Shown piece after piece: positions 8,326 to 20,630 of a DNA stretch of 64,000 bases. This DNA comes from Chloroflexota bacterium (lineage in GTDB: Bacteria; Chloroflexota; UBA5177). Every line of letters begins with the position of its first letter. Position 1 is the stretch's first letter. The position numbers and the translations under genes are program-made. Location of the stretch: NCBI GenBank assembly GCA_025449555.1, contig JANWJD010000084.1, forward strand, positions 712 through 64,711, written 5' to 3'. The notes under the pieces are model-generated. The model was not told the DNA's origin and ran no database searches. It saw only the letters and a list, made by a program, of their open reading frames with translations.

Positions 8326-8360
8326 CCTCGTAGGGAACGGCCGGCGCGCCGTCCCACCCC
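8326..8360. repeat. GC-rich hairpin repeat family 2 (copy 1), downstream of the DUF2182 gene
   Basis: CCTCGTAGGGAACGGCCGGCGCGCCGTCCCACCCC; copies at 13438 and 20228 match 28/30. Confidence 0.7.
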
Positions 8361-8416: not shown

Positions 8417-8494
8417 CGTTGTAGCGTTGACCCTTGTGGCCAACCCGTTGTCCGAAGCGGCCGTTGTAGCGTTGACCCTTGTGGTCAACCCGTT
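8417..8494. repeat. two tandem copies (45-bp pitch) of REP-like palindromic repeat family 1
   Basis: CGTTGTAGCGTTGACCCTTGTGG(C/T)CAACCCGTT at 8417-8449 and 8462-8494; hairpin GTTGACC-CTTGT-GGTCAAC. Confidence 0.8.
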
Positions 8495-8539
8495 CTCCAA
8501 CGTGTTCATGCGCCGCGATCTCTCGGGAACTGCCCTGGC

Positions 8540-10673: not shown

Positions 10674-10682
10674 ACCCGCCAA

Positions 10683-10789
10683 CCGTCGTAGCGTCGCCCC
10701 TTGTGGGCGACCCCCGGTTGGCGCCGACCCGCCTGGCCAATCCCGCATCCGTAGCGTCGCCCCTCGTGGGCGACCCCCGGTTGGCGCCG
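10683..10789. repeat. two tandem copies of REP-like palindromic repeat family 1 in the divergent metalloprotease/mnmG intergenic region
   Basis: CCGT(CG)TAGCGTCGCCCCT(T/C)GTGGGCGACCCCCGGTTGGCGCCG at 10683-10726 and 10749-10789; hairpin GTCGCCC-CTTGT-GGGCGAC. Confidence 0.85.
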
Positions 10790-10905: not shown

Positions 10906-12912
10906 ATGAACGATTATCGCTCCCCACCTTCGCCTGCTTCTTCCGACTCGTATGACGTCATCGTGGTGGGTACGGGCCACGCCGGATGCGAGGCTGCTCT
11001 CGCCGCCGCGCGTATCGGCTGTCGCACCGTCGCCTTCACCATGAACCTCGACAACATAGCTCTCATGCCCTGTAATCCCTCGGTGGGCGGCCCGGGCAAA
11101 GCCCATCTGGTGCGAGAAATAGACGCCCTGGGTGGAGAGATGGGCCGAAACACCGACCGCACCAGCGTCCAGATCAGGATGCTCAACACCAGCAAGGGGC
11201 CCGCTGTCCAGGCCCTACGGGCACAGAGCGACAAACGGGCCTACTCTCAATCGATGAAGTCGGTCCTCGAAGAGCAGCCGCGGTTGGATGTAAAGCAAGC
11301 AGTGGTCGACGATCTCATCATCGAACACGATCAGGGCGTACCGCACGTGGCGGGTATCATCACTAGCACCGGCACACGGTACTTCGCCCGCGCCGTCGTG
11401 TTGACCACCGGCACGTTCCTCAAAGGACGAATCATAATCGGAGAGCAGTCATATCCGGCGGGTCGCGCCGGTGAGTTTCCCGCCGACAGTCTGTCCGGCT
11501 CCCTGGCCCGTTGCTCGTTCCGACTCGGACGCCTCAAAACGGGAACGCCGCCGCGTATCGACGGCCGGACCATCGACTACAGCCTCACGTCGTTGCAGCG
11601 TGGTAGCGACTCGCCCCTTTTTTTCAGCCACGATGCTCGCGAGGCGTATCGGAATGCTCGCATGTCGTCTCCCGATGCCCGGGCGCCCATCGCCGACTTC
11701 GAAGCCGCGCGGCACGGGTCCGATCCAGCGTGGCGATCACAGCTCCCCTGTCACCTGGTTCAAACCACGCAGGAAACCCACGACATCATTCGAGCCAACC
11801 TGCATCTGGCGCCCATGTACAACGGCGGGATTACAAGTGTCGGTCCGCGCTACTGTCCCTCGATCGAGACCAAGATCGTTCGCTTTGCCGAAAAGCAGTC
11901 TCATCTGCTCTTTCTAGAACCCGAAGGCTGGAAGACGAGAGAGGTATACGTGCAGGGAGCAAACACCAGCCTGCCGGAAGACGTGCAGGGCGCCATGCTG
12001 CGCAGTATTCCAGCGCTGCGTCGCTGTGAGGTCATGCGCGCCGGATACGCCATCGAATATGACTACCTGCCCGGTACGCAGGTCTATCATTCACTCGAGT
12101 CAAAGCCGCTTCGAAACCTCTATCTTGCCGGCCAGATCATCGGCACCACCGGCTACGAAGAAGCGGGGGCACTCGGCATCATGGCCGGTATCAACGCGGC
12201 CCGGCGTGCTCGATCGCAAGACGAAGTGGTGTTGCGGCGCGATCAGGCCTACATCGGGGTACTGATCGACGATCTTGTCACCAAGGAAATGGACGAACCG
12301 TATCGGATGCACACGTCACAGGCTGAGTTCCGGTTGCTCTTGCGCCAGGACAATGCCGAAGAGCGGCTCGGTGCCCTGGCGTTTGATCTCGGCCTGGTCG
12401 ACGAACAGCGCCACCGCCGGCTCGAGGACCGTCGACGACAGATCGAGACGATTGTCAGCGGTCTCGACGATTCGTGGCTCCGGTTTGACCGCGAGACCAC
12501 CCGGCGACTGGACGTGCTGGGCTGCCGGCCGACCAGGCAGAACGTGCGCGCGCGCGACTTCCTCTGCCGTACGGACGTGCACATCGGCATGCTGCAGGAA
12601 CTGGGGCTCGTGCCGTCCGAACTTTCCGACGAGGTGGCTCGTGAGGTCGAGACTGCGGTGAAGTACGCGGGTTACGTGGCTCGCCAGGAAGGCGAGGTGA
12701 AACGCCTGCGCCGCCTCGAGGATCGGGTGATTCCTCCTGACGTACAGTACGACTCGGTCCGCGGCTTGCGCGCCGAAACGATGGAACGATTGTCCAGAAT
12801 TCAACCGCGAACCATCGGGCACGCTTCTCGGATTGCAGGAGTAACCGCGTCTGACATTTCCGTTCTCCTGGTCCATCTGGAGCAGATTCGCCGTCAACCT
12901 GTGCAAGGGTAA
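10906..12912 (+). CDS. mnmG: tRNA uridine-5-carboxymethylaminomethyl(34) synthesis enzyme MnmG (GidA)
   Basis: SYDVIVVGTGHAGCEAALAAAR FAD-binding N-terminus and full-length MnmG similarity; ATG at 10906; the upstream ORF part from 10513 crosses the repeat elements. Confidence 0.92.
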   Translation: MNDYRSPPSPASSDSYDVIVVGTGHAGCEAALAAARIGCRTVAFTMNLDNIALMPCNPSVGGPGKAHLVREIDALGGEMGRNTDRTSVQIRMLNTSKGPAVQALRAQSDKRAYSQSMKSVLEEQPRLDVKQAVVDDLIIEHDQGVPHVAGIITSTGTRYFARAVVLTTGTFLKGRIIIGEQSYPAGRAGEFPADSLSGSLARCSFRLGRLKTGTPPRIDGRTIDYSLTSLQRGSDSPLFFSHDAREAYRNARMSSPDARAPIADFEAARHGSDPAWRSQLPCHLVQTTQETHDIIRANLHLAPMYNGGITSVGPRYCPSIETKIVRFAEKQSHLLFLEPEGWKTREVYVQGANTSLPEDVQGAMLRSIPALRRCEVMRAGYAIEYDYLPGTQVYHSLESKPLRNLYLAGQIIGTTGYEEAGALGIMAGINAARRARSQDEVVLRRDQAYIGVLIDDLVTKEMDEPYRMHTSQAEFRLLLRQDNAEERLGALAFDLGLVDEQRHRRLEDRRRQIETIVSGLDDSWLRFDRETTRRLDVLGCRPTRQNVRARDFLCRTDVHIGMLQELGLVPSELSDEVAREVETAVKYAGYVARQEGEVKRLRRLEDRVIPPDVQYDSVRGLRAETMERLSRIQPRTIGHASRIAGVTASDISVLLVHLEQIRRQPVQG

Positions 12913-12915
12913 GCG

Positions 12916-13338
12916 GTGCGGGCGCAGGTCGTGCTGCTGCGTGACGGCCACATCTTGATGGTGCGCCATTCGCACGCCGACCGCGCATATTGGGTTCTTC
13001 CTGGTGGCGCGGTCGAACCTGACGAGGACGTCGCTGCTGCCGCCGTGCGCGAGGTTCTGGAGGAGACCGGCCTCTCGATTTCACTCGAACGGTTACTCTT
13101 CGTCGACGGTCCGCGTGTGGTGGGCGACCATGCCATTAAACAGCCGCGCTACACCTACCTGGGGCGCATCGTTGGCGGCGAGTTACAACAGATTGTGGAC
13201 CCTCGCGGCGGAAATCCGGGGAAAGGCTGCCTCACCGGCGCAATGTGGAAACCGTTCGACTGCACAGACTTCGACGCGGCCACGCGCGACACACTCCGGC
13301 TGGTCGCCCGTTCACTCGACTTCAGGGCCGAACAATAA
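12916..13338 (+). CDS. NUDIX hydrolase
   Basis: NUDIX box GGAVEPDEDVAAAAVREVLEETGL; GTG start 4 nt after mnmG stop. Confidence 0.75.
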   Translation: MRAQVVLLRDGHILMVRHSHADRAYWVLPGGAVEPDEDVAAAAVREVLEETGLSISLERLLFVDGPRVVGDHAIKQPRYTYLGRIVGGELQQIVDPRGGNPGKGCLTGAMWKPFDCTDFDAATRDTLRLVARSLDFRAEQ

Positions 13339-13437
13339 CCCAGTCCCGCCTTGGGCTTGACTTCCGCCCTCAGACCTGGACGGATTCAGCCGACCATCGC
13401 TACAATTCGTTCCTCATCGCCACAACTCTCGGCGATA

Positions 13438-13471
13438 TTCGTAGGGGACGGCCCCCGCGCCGTCCCACCGG
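13438..13471. repeat. GC-rich hairpin repeat family 2 (copy 2), between convergent NUDIX and AKR genes
   Basis: TTCGTAGGGGACGGCCCCCGCGCCGTCCCACCGG. Confidence 0.7.
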
Positions 13472-13686
13472 TATTGTATGAGGGGACCAGAGCAGATCAC
13501 CACGCCGGGCGATCCCTACCTATATCAGAGAATGTCAAGATGGCCTCACCGGTTGCTTCCGGCGTGGCGCCGCGAAGCGGCATGGGAGACTCCATCGCCG
13601 AGGCCTGTCGATCCTCAGGCATAGACGTTTCGAAAACACTTCCATCGCCACTATGCGACATGCTTGACTGATAGGCGACTCCGTAC

Positions 13687-14562
13687 TCATCCAGCAATGC
13701 TGTCCAGCTCTACCACGTCGTACTCCGACAGGGTCAGCGCAGCTCCGGCAACGTTCTCACGCAGATGTGCCACAGACGATGTGCCGGGAATGAGCAGGAT
13801 GTTCGGGGAGCGCTGCAGCAGCCACGCCAGGGCGACGGCGATCGGTATGGTGTTGAGCCGGGTGGCGACCGATGCCAGTGTCCCTGATTGCAGTGGGGAG
13901 AACCCACCGAGCGGGAAGTAGGGCACATAGGCGATTCCCTGGGCCGACAGTGAGTCGATCAAGGCATCGTCGACTCGATGGACCAGGTTGTAGAAATTCT
14001 GTACGCATACGATCGGCGCGATGGACTGTGCTTCCTCGATCTGCTCGGCAGAGACGGTACTGATACCGAGCTGCCTGATCAATCCCTCGTGCCGCATCTG
14101 CGCCAGCGCGGTGAACGGTGCGGCGATCGAATCAGGATCTGGGCTGCCGAATCCCCCGACGCGCAGATTGACGACCTCGAGCACGTCGAGGCCGAGGTTG
14201 TCCAGATTGTCGCGCACCGCCCGGCGCAGCTGCTCAGGAGACCGCGCATGCGGCCAGCCGCCCTCGGCGTCACGTGACGCTCCGACCTTCGTGACAATGT
14301 GCAATGAGTCCGGGTAGGGGTGCAGGGCTTCCTTGATGATCTGGTTGGTCACATGTGGGCCGTAGTAGTCGCTGGTGTCGATGTGCGTGATGCCCATGTC
14401 CACCGCTTCGCGCAGGACGGCGATCGCGGCGTCGCGGTCCCTGGGTGGCCCGAAGACGCCGGGACCCGCCAGCTGCATCGCGCCGTACCCCATCCGAGTA
14501 ACCGTCAAACCCTCCGCCATGGTGAACGTTCCACCGGGAAGTGTCGTCATTGCCATGAGCAT
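13687..14562 (-). CDS. aldo/keto reductase
   Basis: AKR-family similarity (GYGAMQL, IDTSDYYG); start chosen at MLMAMTT (14562) behind GAGGAAAGG. Confidence 0.85.
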   Translation of the reverse strand: MLMAMTTLPGGTFTMAEGLTVTRMGYGAMQLAGPGVFGPPRDRDAAIAVLREAVDMGITHIDTSDYYGPHVTNQIIKEALHPYPDSLHIVTKVGASRDAEGGWPHARSPEQLRRAVRDNLDNLGLDVLEVVNLRVGGFGSPDPDSIAAPFTALAQMRHEGLIRQLGISTVSAEQIEEAQSIAPIVCVQNFYNLVHRVDDALIDSLSAQGIAYVPYFPLGGFSPLQSGTLASVATRLNTIPIAVALAWLLQRSPNILLIPGTSSVAHLRENVAGAALTLSEYDVVELDSIAG

Positions 14563-14722
14563 TCCTTTCCTCGTTTTCAAAGCGCCGTGAGAGGGACACG
14601 CCACGTCCCTCGGGCGACTGCGTCAACCTCTGATGATTCCATAGTCCACCAAATGTCTCCACGCGTGAGCTCGCCCGTCCCCCTCTCCTGCGCCGCGGGG
14701 GAGGGGCTAGGGGAGGGGGTCT

Positions 14723-17700
14723 CTACGCCCCCAGCAGACGCGGTTGGTACGCGCGCACGGTCAGCGGCTTCGTATCCAGTTCGGCCACATCGTTCAGTCG
14801 CCAGATCCGCCTGGCCAGCAGCGAGGTGACGTATCGCTCCCGCTGGATCGTCCCCTCGATGATGAGCGACGAGCTGCCATTGACGACGAGACGGTAGTCG
14901 CGATACACGTTCGGAAAGACCGCAACCGGCAGTTCACCCTCTTCGTCGGCCAGCACGAGAAATGTCATCCCCTTGGCAGTCGGAGGCTGCTGGCGGCTGA
15001 TGACGATACCGGCTGTTCGCACCAGCGCACCGGGCGCTCGACCCTCGAGCTGTCCGATGGACAGGACCCGCGCGCGTTGGAGCGAGCGGCGATAAAACGA
15101 CATGATGCTGTACCGGGCTGATGCTCCCTGCAGCGTAAAGTCGATGCCGGCGACATCCAGTTCCGTCAACGGTGGCAGCTCCGGCAGGGCCGCGTCCTCC
15201 GTGCGCAGCAGGGAACGCGTGTGCGTTTCCTGATTGCGGGGCACGGTCTGCACCACCTCCTCCAGTTGCCACAGGAGCGCTCGACGGTTGAGGCCGAGGG
15301 TATCGAATGCGCCGACGGCGATCAGGTTCTCCGCCGCGTCCCGATGTGTGGAAGTCCGGCGCCAGAAATCGGTAAACGACGAGAAGGATCGGCGACCGCG
15401 CGCCTGGACGATTTCGTCCGCCGTCTCCTCGGTTATTCCCTTGACCTGCATCAGACCCATGCGAATCGCTCCGTGTTCCACGGCATACCGGGCAACGCTT
15501 CGATTTATGTCAACCGGCAGCACCCGTATCCCCCATTTGCGCGCTTCCTCGATCACGGTTTGGGTTGGGTAGTAACAACACGGCTCATTCGAAAGAATGG
15601 CGGCCAGAAATTCCGCCGGGTAATACACCTTGAGAAAGGCGGTCTGATACACCGTCTTGGCAAATGCGGCGGCATGGCTCCGACAGAAACCGTACCCCGA
15701 GAAATACGCAATGGCCTCATACATGTCTTTTGCTAACTCTCGATCGCGTCCACCCTTCACCGCGCTTTCGACGAATGCATCGCGACATACGTCCATCTGC
15801 GTCTCGGTCCGGTAATGCGACATGGCCCGGCGTAGCCCGTCGGCATCCGCATACGACAGTCCCGCGAAATCGTGCGCCACCTGCAATACCTGCTCCTGGA
15901 AGATCACGACTCCCAGCGTGTCGCGGAGACATCTCTCCAGGCTCGGATGTGGATAGGTCACCTGCTGCCGCCCCAACCGGCGCTCGACGTAGGGATCCAC
16001 CATCCCGCCCTGGAGTGGTCCGGGACGAAACAGCGCGATCTGGATAATCAGGTCGCCGAAGGTGCGGGGCTGTGAACGTGCCAGCAGCGCCCACTGCCCT
16101 GGGCTCTCTACCTGAAAGATGCCGATGGTTTTTGAGGAGCAAATCAGATCGTAAATCGCCGGATCGTCCAGCAGGAGATCGTCGATCGGCACGGTGATCC
16201 CCCGACTCCGCTCGATCCCGCGGACCGCCTCGTCGACGATGGAAAGCGTTCGAAGTCCGAGGATATCGAACTTGATCAATCCCAGCAGCTCGACATCATC
16301 CTTGTTGAACTGGCAGACACGTACCCCACTGGTCGCATACTCCAGCGGCACGACGTCGACCAATGGCTCCGCGGTGATCAGCATCCCGCCGTTGTGCAGT
16401 GAGAGATGGCGCGGGTAGCCATCCAACTGCTCGCACAGTTCGAGCACCATACTCAACGGCGTCCCTCCTGCTGCCACATCTAGTGCACGTCCAGGTGGGA
16501 TGGTGGGCACTGGCTTGTCCACGCTCGCTACGGGTCCGTCCTGTAGGGCGGGGCCGCGAAGCAGTGCCCCGCCGCCCCGTTCCATCGCGATTGCAGAACC
16601 TCCACGTTGATCCTGCACTAGGGAACTGTCGCTCTGTGCCGGCACGGGAAGTGACGTCCCGGTGACTGCTCCCGCCAGCTCCAGTTCTTCGCGCATGTGG
16701 CTGACCCCTCGATAACTGAGTTTCCCGGCCAGGTGGTCGATCAGCGATGGAGAAAAACCCATGGCCTTCGCCACATCTCGAAAGGCGGAACGTGAGCGGT
16801 AGGTAATGACGTTCGCCACCATGGCGGCATGCTCGGTGGTGTAGCGTTCCTGGATATAGGTAATAACCTCATCACGCCGTCGCGAGTCAAAGTCGATATC
16901 GACATCGGGCATTCCGACGCGACCTGGATTGAGAAAGCGCTCGAACAGGAGATTGTTCGCCAGTGGATCGACCGCGGTAATACCCAGCACGTAGGCCACG
17001 ATCGAATCGGCGGCCGATCCCCGACCGGCACACCGGATCCCGCGCTCCCGAGAAAAACGGACGATATCCCATACGCAGAGGAAAAACGAGGCAAGTCCCA
17101 TCTCCTCAATCACCGAAAGCTCGTGCGCCAGTTGTTTGCTCACCGCGGGTGTCAGTGGACGGTAGAGCCGGCGAACTCCTTCCTGACAGAGTCGATAGAG
17201 CTGAGAGAAGGCGGTTTCCCCTTCCGGCACCGGGAAATCCGGCGGACGGCAGGTGACGGCCAGCAGCTCGAGATTGCAGGAATCGGCTATTTCCTCGGAA
17301 GCGGCGGCACAGGCGTCGAATACCTCGTCAGGCAAGCCAAAGGTGGCTCGCATCTCCTCCGCCGACTTGAGGTAGTACTCGCCGTTGGGGTGCCGCACCT
17401 CGCTCCATTCGTCCAGGGTGGTCCGTGTCCCGATGCATGCCATGACATCGCGCACGCGGTATTCATCGGGATGGGCGTAATGAACGTCGTTGGCAATGGT
17501 GCAGCCTACCCCCGTGCTCGCCGCCACGTCTCGCAGCGCGTCGACCAGCGCAGTATCGTCCGGCAGGAGATGATGCTCGAGTTCGATCCAGAAGTCGCGG
17601 CCGAAGACGGCGAGATAGCGCTCGACCGCCTCGATTGCCCCCGCTCTGTCGCCTTTCAGCAGGAGTGACGGAATCTCGCCACGACGGCAACCGGACAGCG

Positions 17701-18073
17701 CGATCAAGCCTCCGGCATGAGCCGCCAGATCGGAGAACGTGATCTGGGGATCGTCCTGGTAGTCAAGCTGCGCTCTGGTGACGATGCGGCAAAGATTGCC
17801 GTAACCACTCCGGTCATCTGCCCGCAGTAGCAGGTGCGGGTTGGCGTTCGCATCGTCCGGCCCTTCTATTCGGAGGCGTATCTCCACCCCGACAATGGGC
17901 TTGATACCATGCGCCCGAGCGGCGTGAATGAAGCGGACTATGCCATACAGCCCGTGATGATCGGTGAGCGCGAGCGCGGACATGCTCAGATCTCGGGCTC
18001 GGCGGAGGAGACGATCGGGCGGAGATGCACCATCCAGAAAGCTGAAATTGCTATGAACGTGAAGCTGGATCAT
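14723..18073 (-). CDS. dnaE2: error-prone DNA polymerase DnaE2 (ImuC), PHP + Pol III alpha core
   Basis: 1116 aa; N-terminal PHP motif HVHSNFSFLDGAS; second Pol III alpha paralog in the window; directly follows imuB with the same LexA-box-controlled arrangement. Confidence 0.85.
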   Translation of the reverse strand: MIQLHVHSNFSFLDGASPPDRLLRRARDLSMSALALTDHHGLYGIVRFIHAARAHGIKPIVGVEIRLRIEGPDDANANPHLLLRADDRSGYGNLCRIVTRAQLDYQDDPQITFSDLAAHAGGLIALSGCRRGEIPSLLLKGDRAGAIEAVERYLAVFGRDFWIELEHHLLPDDTALVDALRDVAASTGVGCTIANDVHYAHPDEYRVRDVMACIGTRTTLDEWSEVRHPNGEYYLKSAEEMRATFGLPDEVFDACAAASEEIADSCNLELLAVTCRPPDFPVPEGETAFSQLYRLCQEGVRRLYRPLTPAVSKQLAHELSVIEEMGLASFFLCVWDIVRFSRERGIRCAGRGSAADSIVAYVLGITAVDPLANNLLFERFLNPGRVGMPDVDIDFDSRRRDEVITYIQERYTTEHAAMVANVITYRSRSAFRDVAKAMGFSPSLIDHLAGKLSYRGVSHMREELELAGAVTGTSLPVPAQSDSSLVQDQRGGSAIAMERGGGALLRGPALQDGPVASVDKPVPTIPPGRALDVAAGGTPLSMVLELCEQLDGYPRHLSLHNGGMLITAEPLVDVVPLEYATSGVRVCQFNKDDVELLGLIKFDILGLRTLSIVDEAVRGIERSRGITVPIDDLLLDDPAIYDLICSSKTIGIFQVESPGQWALLARSQPRTFGDLIIQIALFRPGPLQGGMVDPYVERRLGRQQVTYPHPSLERCLRDTLGVVIFQEQVLQVAHDFAGLSYADADGLRRAMSHYRTETQMDVCRDAFVESAVKGGRDRELAKDMYEAIAYFSGYGFCRSHAAAFAKTVYQTAFLKVYYPAEFLAAILSNEPCCYYPTQTVIEEARKWGIRVLPVDINRSVARYAVEHGAIRMGLMQVKGITEETADEIVQARGRRSFSSFTDFWRRTSTHRDAAENLIAVGAFDTLGLNRRALLWQLEEVVQTVPRNQETHTRSLLRTEDAALPELPPLTELDVAGIDFTLQGASARYSIMSFYRRSLQRARVLSIGQLEGRAPGALVRTAGIVISRQQPPTAKGMTFLVLADEEGELPVAVFPNVYRDYRLVVNGSSSLIIEGTIQRERYVTSLLARRIWRLNDVAELDTKPLTVRAYQPRLLGA

Positions 18074-18312
18074 CAGTCATAGAGGCGCTCTAGGAACCAT
18101 CTATCCCGCTCGCGGTAGATCTCATACGTTCCCAGGTTGTCGCACTCGACTTTGTAGTACTGGCGCGATACCTCCTGGCGCCACCAATCAGCCTGGACGA
18201 TCCAGCGCTTCAAAATAGCTGTGATGCAATGTGCCTGCCGCCGCCAGGTAAAGATCTGCGGCCGTCCCTCCGCACATTCCACCGTGATCGGGTCGGAATA
18301 CAACCTGGTCAT
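18073..18312 (-). CDS. hypothetical 79-aa protein translationally coupled between imuB and dnaE2
   Basis: ATG overlaps the imuB stop (ATGA); its TGA overlaps the dnaE2 ATG (TGATG); Trp/Arg-rich (WRRQAHCITAILKRWIVQADWWRQEV); no family recognised. Confidence 0.5.
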   Translation of the reverse strand: MTRLYSDPITVECAEGRPQIFTWRRQAHCITAILKRWIVQADWWRQEVSRQYYKVECDNLGTYEIYRERDRWFLERLYD

Positions 18313-20081
18313 GACGATCGTTTCTGTACGGCACCGGTAGTCCAGGGGAGGCCGGCCTCCCACCGAAAACGCCGTTCCGTCAGGATGTTGCCGGCATCCA
18401 CGCCGGCTACATGCTGAAACGCCGTCGTTCCGTAGCGAGCTTCAAACGCCTCATCATGGTGAGTCAGCGCCTGACGGCGCTCGGTACTGAATCCTTTCAA
18501 CCTTCCCCCGCCGTCGAGTCGGTCAAAGTCGCTCAAGGAGAGTTGAGACGGTTTCGTAAACTCTCCAATTTTCAGTTCGACTGCCAGTAAACGAGGCGCC
18601 TGCTCGTCCTCACCGGCGGTGGATCGAGGTCGCGGCCGGCTCTGCAGCAGCAACCGTTGGGCTCGTTCGAGCAGAGCAGCGGCCGTGTCGATCGGCGTAC
18701 GAACCATGGCAACCATCTGCTGTGAACGACCGATATGCTCCGGTCGCGGCGTGAAGGATGCCGGCAACATGTCTCCCTCCGCAACACCGTCCCCGCCTCC
18801 GTCACCCTTCTCCTGCTCCGCGGGAGAAGGGCCGGGGATGAGGGTGCGCGCTCCCGAAAGCGGCTGCGGCAACCCCGAAGAATGGACCCGATACGGACTC
18901 GGCAGAGTTGGTCGCTCATCGTCCCGGTGGCGTGGCGCAGCCGTCAACCGTTGTAGCGTCGCCCCTTGTGGGCGACCCCGGGCTGACGTTTCATCCCACG
19001 TGGCGCCGCCCTGCGGCATGAATGACTCCGTCGCCGAGTGTTCGGGCGCTGTCACGCTCCGACCTCCACTACATTGCCCTGTGGTCATCCGACGTGGCAT
19101 CGCTTGCGGAATGAGTGTCTCTTTTGGAGTGGGCAGCACCGACGGCTCGCCATTCTCCAGGCTTCTTGCCGGTTTTCGCTCGGGCAGTAATTGCCCCGAT
19201 TCTTCCGTCCAGATCAGGGTTAGCCCTACCAACCTTCCCCCGGCTCTACGCTCCAGCAGCTCACCGGCACAGGTGTCGGCCAGCGTACGGAGACTGTCCA
19301 TCGCTTCCTCGATCGAGCCGTCCTCGCATTCGTAGCGCGCCACAATGAACGATTTTTCTGGCGGCGGCAGGACCGGACGCGGATCGATGCCGCGCGCGTA
19401 ACGGTGAAGCTGCTCGCCGGCGGCCCCAAAGCGTTGTTTCACCGCGGAGGAAGGAAGCGCGGCAAATTGCCCAATCGTCGTGAGGCCGAGCACCTGAAAC
19501 GTCAGCGCCAGGCGAGCATCGACCCCGGGCAACAAGGTCAGCGGAAGATCCGCCAGAAAGACGCGTTCTCGTCCTCGCTCGATCACCGTCACACCATCCG
19601 CCTCGGTAGATATCGAGGCTAGCTGCGCGACCAGTCGGTTCGATGCCATGCCGAGCGAAGGAACGATGCCGGTCGAACGTTCGATCTGCCGCGCGATGGT
19701 CCGTCCGGCGCTCCACTCATCACTCCAGAAGCGCTCACATCCGGACATATCACACGCTGCCTGCCCCATCTCCTCCGGTTCGACCAGCGGAGTATGACAG
19801 CGCAAGAGGTCGCAGATTTCCTCCCATACCTGCTCGTATCGAGGGAGATCGGGCAGGAGGAAAACCCCGTGAGGACAGTGCTGGTGTGCCTGAGAAAGCG
19901 TCATGCCGAGACGCACCCCAGACTGTTGCGCCAGTTGGTTCGCCTCGCGCACTATTCCCCGCTGCTGTGGTAAGCCACCGATAACCAGCGGGCAGGAGCG
20001 CAACTCCGGGCGCCGAGCTTCCTCCACTGCCACCCAAAAGCCGGGAACCACACGAAGGTGAACGATCATCATCGCCTCCAC
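18309..20081 (-). CDS. imuB: ImuB-like Y-family polymerase homolog (SOS mutagenesis cassette)
   Basis: N-terminal ~250 aa has the UmuC/DinB-like fold pattern (VHLRV...IGGLPQQRGIVREANQLAQQSGVRLGM); long low-complexity C-terminus; immediately upstream of dnaE2; LexA box 30 bp upstream. Confidence 0.7.
   Translation of the reverse strand: MEAMMIVHLRVVPGFWVAVEEARRPELRSCPLVIGGLPQQRGIVREANQLAQQSGVRLGMTLSQAHQHCPHGVFLLPDLPRYEQVWEEICDLLRCHTPLVEPEEMGQAACDMSGCERFWSDEWSAGRTIARQIERSTGIVPSLGMASNRLVAQLASISTEADGVTVIERGRERVFLADLPLTLLPGVDARLALTFQVLGLTTIGQFAALPSSAVKQRFGAAGEQLHRYARGIDPRPVLPPPEKSFIVARYECEDGSIEEAMDSLRTLADTCAGELLERRAGGRLVGLTLIWTEESGQLLPERKPARSLENGEPSVLPTPKETLIPQAMPRRMTTGQCSGGRSVTAPEHSATESFMPQGGATWDETSARGRPQGATLQRLTAAPRHRDDERPTLPSPYRVHSSGLPQPLSGARTLIPGPSPAEQEKGDGGGDGVAEGDMLPASFTPRPEHIGRSQQMVAMVRTPIDTAAALLERAQRLLLQSRPRPRSTAGEDEQAPRLLAVELKIGEFTKPSQLSLSDFDRLDGGGRLKGFSTERRQALTHHDEAFEARYGTTAFQHVAGVDAGNILTERRFRWEAGLPWTTGAVQKRSS
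18946..18988. repeat. REP-like repeat family 1 copy inside the imuB ORF
   Basis: CAACCGTTGTAGCGTCGCCCCTTGTGGGCGACCCCGGGCTGACG; in frame, encodes GRPQGATLQRL in the imuB linker. Confidence 0.8.
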
Positions 20082-20111
20082 GACATACTGAGATCGTATT
20101 CCCTCTTATTG

Positions 20112-20123
20112 GAACATAAGTTC
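20112..20123 (-). promoter_or_regulatory. LexA/SOS box (GAAC-N4-GTTC, Cheo-box type) upstream of imuB
   Basis: GAACATAAGTTC lies ~30 bp upstream of the imuB start, beside a TATATAAT -10-like element. Confidence 0.7.
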
Positions 20124-20227
20124 TATATAATGTCAATACCTGGGACATATTTTCTCATAAGACACTACATGTTGTGGCCCACCCTCCATTCACCCGACTC
20201 TGGATGATCACCATACGCACACATGGT

Positions 20228-20265
20228 CCCAGGGAACGGCCGGCGTGCCGTTCCGCCCGAACGTC
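20228..20265. repeat. GC-rich hairpin repeat family 2 (copy 3, diverged), in the imuB/epimerase divergent region
   Basis: CCCAGGGAACGGCCGGCGTGCCGTTCCGCCCGAACG; stem GGGAACGGC/GCCGTTCC. Confidence 0.6.
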
Positions 20266-20630
20266 GGCCCGCGCTCCCGTTCCGATTCCCAAGGCGACCT
20301 TTGCACGCGGCATGGCGCCGCACCTGTGGGACACACTCCCTCTTGCTTTTCCTTCCATCCGTCGTACGGTAGAAATAAGAACCGTCCACCCTTCACCCCC
20401 CAGCGACCACCCACCACGTAAACCAGAATTCTGACGAAACAAACCCAATTTTTGGCGATATGCCGCCAGTTCACTCTCCACCAACCCAAATCCAAAGCCA
20501 ATGAAAACCCACTCAAACACCCCTTAAACCCGATATGCACCCCCAACACCGCCCTTCACCCCGCCTGAACTCAGGCGACCGGGGGCCGGCGCGCTCCCTG
20601 GTACAATCGACTACTCGACGAGGAGGCTGT

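Follow-up and report, generated by a model that had tools for sequence, protein, structure and literature searches.

How does a palindromic repeat whose other copies lie between genes come to sit within the reading frame of a DNA polymerase homolog, and does it have any role there? The question is raised by a 64-kb stretch of DNA (the window) from the metagenome-assembled genome (MAG) of a Chloroflexota bacterium. We favor, with a probability of roughly 0.7, the explanation that a mosaic of REP/BIME-like selfish DNA inserted as a tolerated passenger into the gene of an inactive Y-family polymerase.

The host gene belongs to a cassette without imuA

The host gene (18309..20081, minus strand) is imuB-like and encodes a catalytically inactive Y-family polymerase (PF00817 at 6.8e-30). 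Its ORF has 590 codons; the identical NCBI protein (P0001, 100%) starts at 20069 and has 586 aa. All matches of the Pol IV NCBIfam models to the host protein fell below cut-off. Residues D8, D103 and E104 of E. coli Pol IV (chain 4irc_F), which we take to be the catalytic residues in the numbering of that enzyme, align with R, G and Q in the host protein, which thus shares with canonical ImuB a Y-family fold that has lost its catalytic carboxylates.

A small, translationally coupled ORF encoding DUF6504 (18073..18363, minus strand; PF20114 at 1.7e-08) separates the PolY gene from dnaE2 (14723..18073, minus strand; NF004225 at 6.9e-292, above cut-off), an error-prone polymerase III alpha homolog. 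Both of these coupled genes are intact, and the gene order polY-DUF6504-dnaE2 is common to the related loci L001, L002, L111, L117 and L118. No imuA-like ORF was found upstream, where Pfam gives no match for the ORFs at 20155-20520 and 20208-20549, and the next gene, on the opposite strand, encodes an MR_MLE enzyme. A LexA-box-like site lies upstream of the cassette, at 20112-20123, and the cassette appears to be SOS-regulated.

The preliminary description had called the gene imuB. That name fits a Y-family polymerase homolog followed by DUF6504 and DnaE2, but the canonical imuA-imuB-dnaE2 arrangement has a fused ImuB-C and an adjacent imuA or imuA', whereas here DUF6504 is a separate ORF and imuA is missing. 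Inactive PolY of an imuA-less polY/DUF6504/dnaE2 cassette is the more fitting description of the host. It resembles the operons of inactive PolY, standalone ImuB-C and DnaE2 without imuA known as the 'Kyrpidia tusciae type' (Timinskas & Venclovas 2019, PMC6511836) in its dead Y-family polymerase, small coupled ORF, DnaE2, lack of imuA and upstream LexA-box-like site. The DUF6504 ORF may or may not correspond to the standalone ImuB-C of that type, and the comparison covers the host gene, not the repeat.

A clean in-frame insertion of 58 codons

Comparison with the ortholog DNA of L001, L002 and L111 revealed a single clean gap at 18945..19118 (plus strand, antisense to the host gene), with borders accurate to about 2 nt. 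The whole lineage-specific insert is thus 174 nt, or 58 codons in phase 0, and is translated on the gene strand as TLIPQAMPRRMTTGQCSGGRSVTAPEHSATESFMPQGGATWDETSARGRPQGATLQRL. It is missing from all 17 aligned orthologs, 88%-identical ones included; the ortholog alignment, proposed earlier as a check, thus confirms that the insert is lineage-specific. The size given there does not hold: in place of a single 43-bp element adding about 14 aa, the gene carries a mosaic of three modules, of which the 44-mer is only the first.

Ortholog sequence picks up exactly on either side of the insert, in frame, with nothing lost or duplicated, and only one of the three gene-strand frames of the insert is open, frames 1 and 2 carrying two stops each. 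With close orthologs lacking the insert and the rest of the gene under purifying selection, the locus has the features of an in-frame palindromic insertion. The insert lies 8 residues upstream of the motif PYRVHSxLPQP, which is invariant in 18 orthologs. No target-site duplication was found at its flanks relative to the empty sites in L001, L002 and L111, and the block, which begins with CAACCGTTGTAGCG and ends with GGAATGAGTGTCTC, has no terminal inverted repeats. Another border, which would align 'QAMPRR' of the window with 'QVMARR' of the orthologs in the protein alignment, was rejected because reverse complementing this stretch gives the end of module B', which is well conserved.

The insert is a mosaic of repeat modules

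Module A (18945..18988, plus strand) is a GTAG-headed REP, recognized by copies of its core pattern and by stem covariation. It comprises a 5' flank (CAACCGTT), the head GTAGC (18953-18957), a stem arm GTCGCCC (18958-18964), the loop CTTGT (18965-18969), the second arm GGGCGAC (18970-18976) and a 3' tail. The string first reported for it is present exactly, and once, but it measures 44 nt from 18945 rather than 43 nt from 18946. The core, GTAGCG-stem-CTYGT-stem, occurs five times in the window, always on the plus strand (8421, 8466, 10688, 10751 and 18953), and is absent from shuffled sequence; the density of 5 copies per 64 kb refers to this window of the source genome. As had been reported, the 590-codon ORF contains the copy at 18953, which is translated there as ...SARGRPQGATLQRLTAAP....

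The other four copies are intergenic, again as first described. Two in tandem, head to tail, with the stem variant GTTGACC/GGTCAAC, occupy 8417..8498 (plus strand) between the convergent PpoB2 and NUDIX genes, and two more in tandem, with the stem GTCGCCC/GGGCGAC and followed by a B-like box, occupy 10680..10789 (plus strand) between the divergent peptidase and mnmG genes. In all five copies GTAGC stands immediately 5' of a 7-bp stem. The stem variants GTCGCCC, GTTGACC, GTCGACC, GCCACCC, GTCGGGG and GTGACCC each occur with the matching partner, and changes on both sides were seen at all seven stem pairs. Paired cells amounted to 85.7%, versus 62.7% in shuffles, and none of 500 shuffles reached the observed covariation score. 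At least six of seven Watson-Crick pairs were present in 70 of 94 matches to head and loop, for which pairing was not used in selection. The invariance of GTAGC across the 51 variants of alignment A2 is not independent evidence, because GTAGC belonged to the search pattern.

Five core copies and a covarying hairpin bear out the view of the repeat as dispersed, palindromic and REP-like. An unpaired GTAG at the end of the stem-loop, and a GC-rich stem within the range of 6-13 bp that shows complementary changes, place it among the GTAG-tagged REPs. The REP motif was also found in more than 108 stretches in other genomes, many of them within single MAGs. A search of the whole window against Rfam at gathering thresholds returned a tRNA only, with no known RNA family at the repeats. 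We rejected a CRISPR mini-array in view of spacings of 45 and 63 nt, repeat-like flanks and the absence of cas genes.

Module B (18988..19038, plus strand) reads ...GTGGCGCCGCCCTGCGGCATGAATGACTCCGTCGCCGAG, a small GCCGC/GCGGC hairpin with a CATGGGAGACTC-like box after it, and is 78% identical to a solitary copy at 13552..13602 (plus strand), where the NUDIX gene and an aldo-keto reductase gene converge. Modules A and B together match a locus in a related Chloroflexota MAG (L022, DAINCT01) with 82.6% identity over 92 nt, and module B is also matched in L046, L010, L048 and L001:21508-21547. A degenerate second B-type unit, module B' (19039..19118, plus strand), was recognized in a MAFFT alignment with the B-type units of L022, L046, L001 and window position 13552; it ends in GGAATGAGTGTCTC, where the consensus is GGCATGGGAGACTC. 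The insertion terminates at the natural end of a B' unit, and its start likewise coincides with a natural unit end. No other copy in the window is identical to the inserted block: module A is 97% identical to 10680-10714 over 35 nt, the similarity over 51 nt is 78-88%, and the degenerate B' is unique. A promoter brought in by the repeat was considered and rejected; TTGACA stands upstream of the REP in related MAG units, but the imuB insert lacks that part, and nothing promoter-like was found in 18000-20600.

A disordered loop that has received repeats several times

The insert lies in a loop of about 150 residues (295-444) that AlphaFold2 predicts with pLDDT of about 30 and no secondary structure. 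This, together with phase 0, corroborates the earlier placement of the repeat, in frame, in a low-complexity, disordered stretch. That stretch had been taken for a linker between domains; it does precede the conserved C-terminal part, but the model suggests, with low confidence, that it interrupts the little-finger-like domain rather than separating two whole domains. Estimates of dN/dS are 0.10-0.15 for the N-terminal part and 0.15-0.21 for the C-terminal part, so that the domains flanking the loop are under purifying selection (0.10-0.21), versus 0.4-1.35 for the loop itself, whose length varies freely across orthologs. The 146 C-terminal residues are colinear with all orthologs. It had been asked whether imuB actually ends upstream of the repeat; it does not, because the gene reads through the insert into this conserved part.

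The same loop in sister lineages holds other palindromic repeats. An older element, family 2, occupies 18798..18850 (plus strand) in the window and the same position in L001 and L002; it has the form CCCTTCTCC-N8-GGGAGAAGGG plus CCGGGGATGAGGGTG, is translated as LIPGPSPAEQEKGD, and has an intergenic copy at 14670-14722. In L111, L117 and L118, family 2 stands in the opposite orientation at a different position in the loop, and the L117 loop additionally holds two Y-type GTAG REPs. With the family-2 palindrome opposite in two clades and Y-type REPs in L117, these insertions are independent events, and at least three repeat families, differing in position and orientation, have entered the loop within one gene family.

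Relation to known repeat systems and a possible route of mobilization

The BIMEs of enterobacteria such as E. coli join REPs and further short, conserved motifs into modular arrays of variable make-up. The window mosaic is built in the same manner, although the sequences are unrelated and the host belongs to a different phylum.

Insertion of such elements into genes has been described for GTAG REPs, which were sorted into 24 numbered families and found in Chloroflexi (clustered GTAG-23 in Thermomicrobium roseum) as well as Planctomycetes (Di Nocera, De Gregorio & Rocco 2013, PMC3733652). Many of the intragenic copies reported there lie in replication and repair genes, with REP dimers in dnaE2 of Opitutus terrae, REPs in uvrA, uvrB, recB and polA, and repeat clusters encoding 43-82 aa; the authors suggested that such copies, sitting in flexible linkers or loops, are neutral. 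The preliminary description regarded REPs inside functional genes as rare; rare they are, but the cases are well documented, and genes of replication and repair, dnaE2 among them, stand out (PMC3733652). Our repeat shares with those REPs, which are mostly intergenic and occasionally intragenic and in frame, the GTAG head beside a GC-rich stem-loop and subfamilies with complementary stem changes; within the window, four of its five copies are intergenic and one is intragenic and in frame. Unlike them, the present insert mixes one REP with two non-REP modules, and a single loop has been colonized several times independently; the published table of intragenic REPs contains no imuB or other Y-family polymerase gene. 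Rickettsia palindromic elements (RPEs; Ogata et al. 2000, discussed in PMC3733652, PMC10969869) are likewise selfish palindromes in frame in conserved, apparently functional genes, to which they add a peptide segment that close orthologs lack. They differ in being 100-150 bp long, AT-rich and from an obligate intracellular alphaproteobacterium, and sequence relatedness is not expected.

The GTAG hairpin is the type of substrate used by RAYT HUH tyrosine transposases in REPIN-RAYT systems (Bertels & Rainey 2011, PMC3116915; Nunvar et al.; E. coli TnpA-REP, PMC3479197, PMC8266576). We searched for a RAYT (Y1/HUH transposase, PF01797) with two regular-expression scans and with tblastn using seven published RAYT/TIRYT sequences; neither the 64-kb window nor the other 110 loci examined (L001-L110) yielded such a gene. 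When 2503 ORFs from REP loci were clustered all against all, no transposase family recurred, and the largest cluster consisted of translated repeats. RAYT-like genes at L112, L113, L115 and L116 (Chloroflexota, Armatimonadota) have beside or overlapping them repeats of a sister GTAG family, of the pattern GTAG-GGGCGACC-CCCTGT-GGTCGCCC, and not those of the family studied here. Nor do the copies in the window form REPINs: they are head-to-tail pairs (8421/8466 and 10688/10751) and a single copy (18953), tandem where REPINs are inverted.

An identical 24-nt REP core is present in three phyla, Planctomycetota, Armatimonadota and Chloroflexota, and in the Phycisphaerae and Fervidibacter loci this 24-mer forms inverted, REPIN-like doublets with spacers of 17-30 nt, a likeness to REPIN-RAYT systems that extends to the absent target-site duplication. 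REPIN-RAYT systems are described as mostly vertically inherited and lineage-specific (10.1101/2022.05.22.493013), unlike a core that spans three phyla. On a speculative and rather improbable reading, the shared core would imply horizontal spread of a REP/transposase pair, contrary to that mostly vertical inheritance. A RAYT-like HUH tyrosine transposase that works on single-stranded DNA may have mobilized the block, which would fit the GTAG head beside a covarying hairpin and the absence of a target-site duplication; alternatively, the block may have been copied from another mosaic locus via recombination or template switching.

Weighing the explanations

In the scenario that we favor, the coding sequence of the SOS-cassette PolY would have received modules A, B and degenerate B' together, copied as a single block of 174 nt. 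The block would have landed between codons, in the sole open frame in register, and in an intrinsically disordered loop tolerant of changes in length and sequence, which together would explain why the insertion survives. The protein would carry 58 extra disordered residues and the gene would stay functional; the insert is probably neutral or nearly so, with protein function retained. The lineage-specific, in-frame character of the insertion and its construction from repeat modules with natural ends are direct observations. A different view, which extends the attenuator or processing site suggested in the preliminary description, is that the hairpins work at the level of the operon mRNA, whether by attenuating it internally, by providing a site for processing or for a 3' end, or by stabilizing it, and so tune dnaE2 relative to the PolY gene. 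The predicted RNA fold of the insert region is somewhat stronger than that of shuffles (-81.6 kcal/mol, z = -2.47), enterobacterial REPs have known effects on termination and on the stability of mRNA (background in PMC3733652), and the cassette, with its LexA-box-like site, is apparently SOS-regulated. Against such a role, which we consider unlikely, a scan of both strands of 18000-20600 yielded no terminator-like site, and the gene-strand sequence after the hairpin, GCUACAACGGUUGACGG, provides no U-run behind the 7-bp stem, as an intrinsic terminator or attenuator would require. The hairpin moreover falls in translated sequence and is unwound there by ribosomes; the 17 orthologs, whose operon is the same, all do without it; and at about 640 nt upstream of the next gene it is ill-placed to set the ratio of the two products.

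It is quite unlikely, too, that a repeat-induced mis-join placed intergenic repeat modules inside the gene. Dispersed repeats are a classic cause of mis-assembly, the insertion is seen in one MAG assembly only (the protein cluster of P0001 has one member), and a 22-mer across the insertion junction has no match in JGI metagenome contigs; but a mis-join does not readily account for orthologous sequence resuming exactly and in frame on both sides, for a block that differs from every other window copy and includes a unique B', or for analogous in-frame repeats in the same loop of independently assembled sister lineages. Exaptation, in which the 58 residues, or the lengthened loop as such, provide a surface for interaction or shift the spacing near PYRVHSxLPQP and thereby alter mutasome assembly, would suit the position of the insert just upstream of that invariant motif and the repeated remodeling of the loop by repeats. 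We nevertheless regard it as improbable, given a single-lineage event, an insert sequence dictated by repeat modules, no predicted order in the insert loop and a loop length that is free to vary. Least probable of all is that the gene has been inactivated or split, the long ORF being a high-GC read-through and its product either ending before the repeat or belonging to a pseudogene. A G+C content of 59% and near-neutral evolution of the loop (dN/dS up to 1.35) might suggest this, but the gene frame alone is open through the insert, the colinear C-terminal residues beyond it remain constrained, and the coupled DUF6504 and dnaE2 genes are intact.

Implications

Because intragenic GTAG REPs were described in 2013 (PMC3733652), insertion of a REP into a gene is an already known kind of event, and the locus reveals no new mechanism. 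One might speculate, with considerable doubt, that the PolY loop is a preferred landing site for single-strand-specific REP mobilization and not just a tolerant sink, in which case the published enrichment in replication and repair genes would be mechanistic. These genes might then be transcribed and exposed as single-stranded DNA at the very time of DNA damage, when RAYT-type transposition would be active, or REP-derived segments might be selected to modulate mutasome assembly. Annotators can take segments such as GRPQGAT, GRHGDLPL, GQARGPAPT, PSPAEQEKG and GEGPGMRVR, where they occur in Chloroflexota proteins, for translated repeats rather than domains. The Y-family partner of DnaE2 joins the published repair genes that carry REPs, and the window provides a clean case from nature of a protein made longer by selfish palindromic DNA through a disordered loop, apparently without being destroyed.

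An in-frame mosaic of repeats in an imuB-like gene

The palindromic repeat reported in the preliminary description as a 43-bp element has a single exact occurrence in the window, at 18945-18988 (+), and is one base longer (44 nt) than first given. Its core (GTAGC head, 7-bp stem, CTYGT loop, complementary stem) is found at five places in the window, all of them on the + strand (8421, 8466, 10688, 10751 and 18953), versus no copies in shuffled sequence. Four of these copies are intergenic, as had been described, two lying between the convergent PpoB2 and NUDIX genes and two between the divergent peptidase and mnmG genes. The fifth does fall in imuB-like coding sequence, the ORF at 18309-20081 (-), where it is read as ...SARGRPQGATLQRLTAAP....

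Alignment of the DNA with three orthologous loci (L001, L002 and L111) leaves a single clean 174-nt gap, corresponding to window positions 18945-19118. The insert starts between codons and comprises exactly 58 of them, two of its three frames on the gene strand being closed. In the protein alignment with 17 orthologs (52-88% identity over aligned columns), the window protein alone carries some 55 extra residues here; the comparison proposed earlier as a check of lineage specificity thus finds 17 of 17 orthologs without it. The protein alignment also hinted that 'QAMPRR' is orthologous to 'QVMARR', which we rejected, as the stretch is the reverse complement of a repeat module's conserved end.

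Three modules make up the insert, which is thus a mosaic. Module A (18945-18988), the repetitive extragenic palindrome (REP) itself, shares 97% identity with 10680-10714 over 35 nt. Module B (18988-19038) has an intergenic counterpart at 13552-13602, to which it is 78% identical, and module B' (19039-19118) can be aligned as another, degenerate unit of the B type. A unit in a Chloroflexota MAG (DAINCT01, locus L022) corresponds to A plus B with 82.6% identity over 92 nt, and further copies of module B occur in loci L046, L010, L048 and L001. No target-site duplication was found at the insert flanks. The limits of the block coincide with those of the units themselves, since it opens where an A unit naturally starts and stops where a B unit naturally ends; in other copies these limits read CAAACCGTYGTAGCG and GGCATGGGAGACTC, respectively. 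It therefore looks like a discrete, BIME-like copy of a modular array.

The host gene and its operon

The N-terminal domain of the host ORF is that of a Y-family polymerase (PF00817, 6.8e-30), and Pol IV models match the ORF solely below their cut-offs. In alignment, the positions of the E. coli Pol IV catalytic residues D8, D103 and E104 are occupied by R, G and Q; the host protein is therefore a dead polymerase, like ImuB. Downstream lie a coupled 96-codon DUF6504 ORF and then DnaE2 (NF004225, 6.9e-292), and the order MR_MLE gene, PolY, DUF6504, dnaE2 is common to all ortholog loci fetched. No imuA was identified at the cassette. The cassette is similar to the 'inactive PolY / standalone ImuB-C / DnaE2' operons, devoid of imuA, that Timinskas and Venclovas described (PMC6511836). 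With no imuA, and with a DUF6504 ORF standing separately between the dead PolY gene and dnaE2, the segment 18073-20081 resembles the Kyrpidia tusciae-type variant mutasome operon of that paper. In the ENA ortholog contig L001, dnaE2 (11862-15260) is split into many short called genes, probably through frameshift errors of that assembly rather than biology.

The sole GAAC-N4-GTTC site in the 64-kb window (LexA/Cheo-box-like; gene strand AGAACTTATGTTCC) lies within 20112-20134, about 35 nt upstream of the PolY start and adjoining a TTGACA hexamer. Chance alone would give about 1.3 such sites in the whole window, so that its position alone is informative; it suggests that the polY-DUF6504-dnaE2 operon is under SOS/LexA control.

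A disordered loop colonised repeatedly

In an AlphaFold2 model built on an 18-sequence alignment, the N-terminal domain is confident and residues 295-444 have a pLDDT of about 30 and no secondary structure. The elements on either side of this loop, beta-alpha-beta (245-292) and beta-beta-alpha-beta (446-507), suggest that it interrupts a little-finger-like domain, where model confidence is modest. Comparison of the window gene with L002, L001 and L111 gave dN/dS values of 0.10-0.15 for the N-terminal part and 0.15-0.21 for the C-terminal part, versus 0.4-1.35 for the loop; selection therefore keeps the gene on both sides of the insert, with the loop nearly free to vary. A motif, PYR(V/I)HSxLPQP, is intact at 18861-18896 (aa 396-407 of the 590-aa ORF), 8 residues downstream of the insert. 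It is invariant among orthologs within an otherwise unconserved disordered loop, and could serve as a docking site, with the clamp, RecA or DnaE2 as the partner.

The loop also holds a third repeat family, a palindrome at 18798-18850 (CCCTTCTCC-N8-GGGAGAAGGG followed by CCGGGGATGAGGGTG; translated PSPAEQEKG) with an intergenic copy at 14670-14722. It occupies the same place in L001 and L002; in L111 (11150-11215), L117 (gene nt 1274-1310) and L118 it has the opposite orientation and another position, and is translated as GEGPGMRVR-like peptides. Two clades thus carry this palindrome in frame within the PolY loop, with its orientation reversed between them. L117 (JGI Ga0634813_0050066) carries, in addition, two in-frame Y-type GTAG REPs (gene nt 1104-1190), translated GRHGDLPLR and GQARGPAPT. 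These insertions arose independently and mark the loop as a sink for palindromic repeats, or possibly a target of them.

The insertion is known from one assembly and its junction 22-mer was not found in JGI metagenome contigs, as might be expected of a mis-assembly. Against this, orthologous sequence resumes precisely and in frame after the block, the block is not identical to the other window copies, and analogous events are seen in independent assemblies. The earlier suggestion that the hairpin serves as an attenuator or processing site in the operon mRNA draws some support from the insert's RNA fold, which is slightly more stable than shuffles (z = -2.47), yet it has a low probability: 18000-20600 contains neither terminator-like nor promoter-like sites, the stem is not followed by a U-run, the hairpin sits within a translated stretch, some 640 nt short of the next gene, and it is missing from every ortholog. 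An insertion of repeats into a permissive loop is the reading we retain.

A GTAG-REP hairpin in several phyla

A scan of GTDB species-representative genomes with a degenerate REP core returned more than 108 stretches, the sources among the matches listed being Phycisphaerae/Planctomycetota, Fervidibacter/Armatimonadota, Chloroflexota MAGs and one Acidimicrobiales, the last probably a chance match. An identical 24-mer, GTAGCGTCGCCCCTTGTGGGCGAC, is present in MAGs of Phycisphaerae, Fervidibacter/Armatimonadota and Chloroflexota (loci L003-L110). In the first two groups it usually forms an inverted doublet, whose partner REP has a different yet self-complementary stem. One MAG, CALJEG01, has dozens of copies, arranged as tandem units at intervals of about 190-430 nt.

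Pairing was assessed on 94 head-and-loop matches outside the fetch pattern, not chosen for pairing, and 70 of them have at least six of seven Watson-Crick stem pairs. Across the 51 distinct variants, both sides of all seven stem pairs have changed, 85.7% of cells are paired (versus 62.7% in shuffles), and the covariation score was reached by none of 500 shuffles; slid registers of the alignment were 38-54% paired. The hairpin is a genuine structure under selection, of the GTAG-REP type, and exactly this kind of hairpin is described for the GTAG REP class (PMC3733652). If a protein such as RAYT, the HUH tyrosine (Y1) transposase linked with such repeats, recognises the hairpin, the head and loop should be constant while the stem covaries freely, and this is the pattern seen.

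No RAYT or Y1 homolog was found in the window or in the 110 loci searched. Homologs of one published Roseiflexus RAYT are common, and the four RAYT-like genes fetched, from Roseiflexus (L112), Chthonomonadales (L113), Dehalococcoidia (L115) and Armatimonadetes (L116), all have beside or overlapping them repeats of a sister GTAG family, GTAG-GGGCGACC-CCCTGT-GGTCGCCC. This is the second GTAG REP family of the window (8328-8358; 13439-13469, with an inverted partner near 13494-13519; and 20227-20257), whose copies are of the GTAG-GGGACGGC-CCCCGC-GCCGTCCC type, as beside those genes. Action of a RAYT on the REP of the insert is therefore no more than plausible. Several of the RAYT-like genes in L112-L116 are short (111-144 aa), with GTAG REPs inside or overlapping coding sequence, and translated REPs account for the N-terminal GRPQGVAPT peptides of Rcas_2775.

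Relation to known intragenic REPs

GTAG REPs have been reported in eight phyla, Chloroflexi and Planctomycetes among them (Di Nocera et al. 2013, PMC3733652). That study already described REPs lying wholly within ORFs and repeat clusters encoding 43-82 residues, with intragenic REPs concentrated in replication and repair genes, dnaE2 included, and proposed that such inserts are neutral when in linkers or loops. Its table of intragenic REPs contains no Y-family or imuB gene. The imuB-like insertion is therefore a well-supported further example of a known phenomenon, to which it adds an insert that is a mosaic, one disordered loop that has been colonised repeatedly, and an identical REP core across three phyla.
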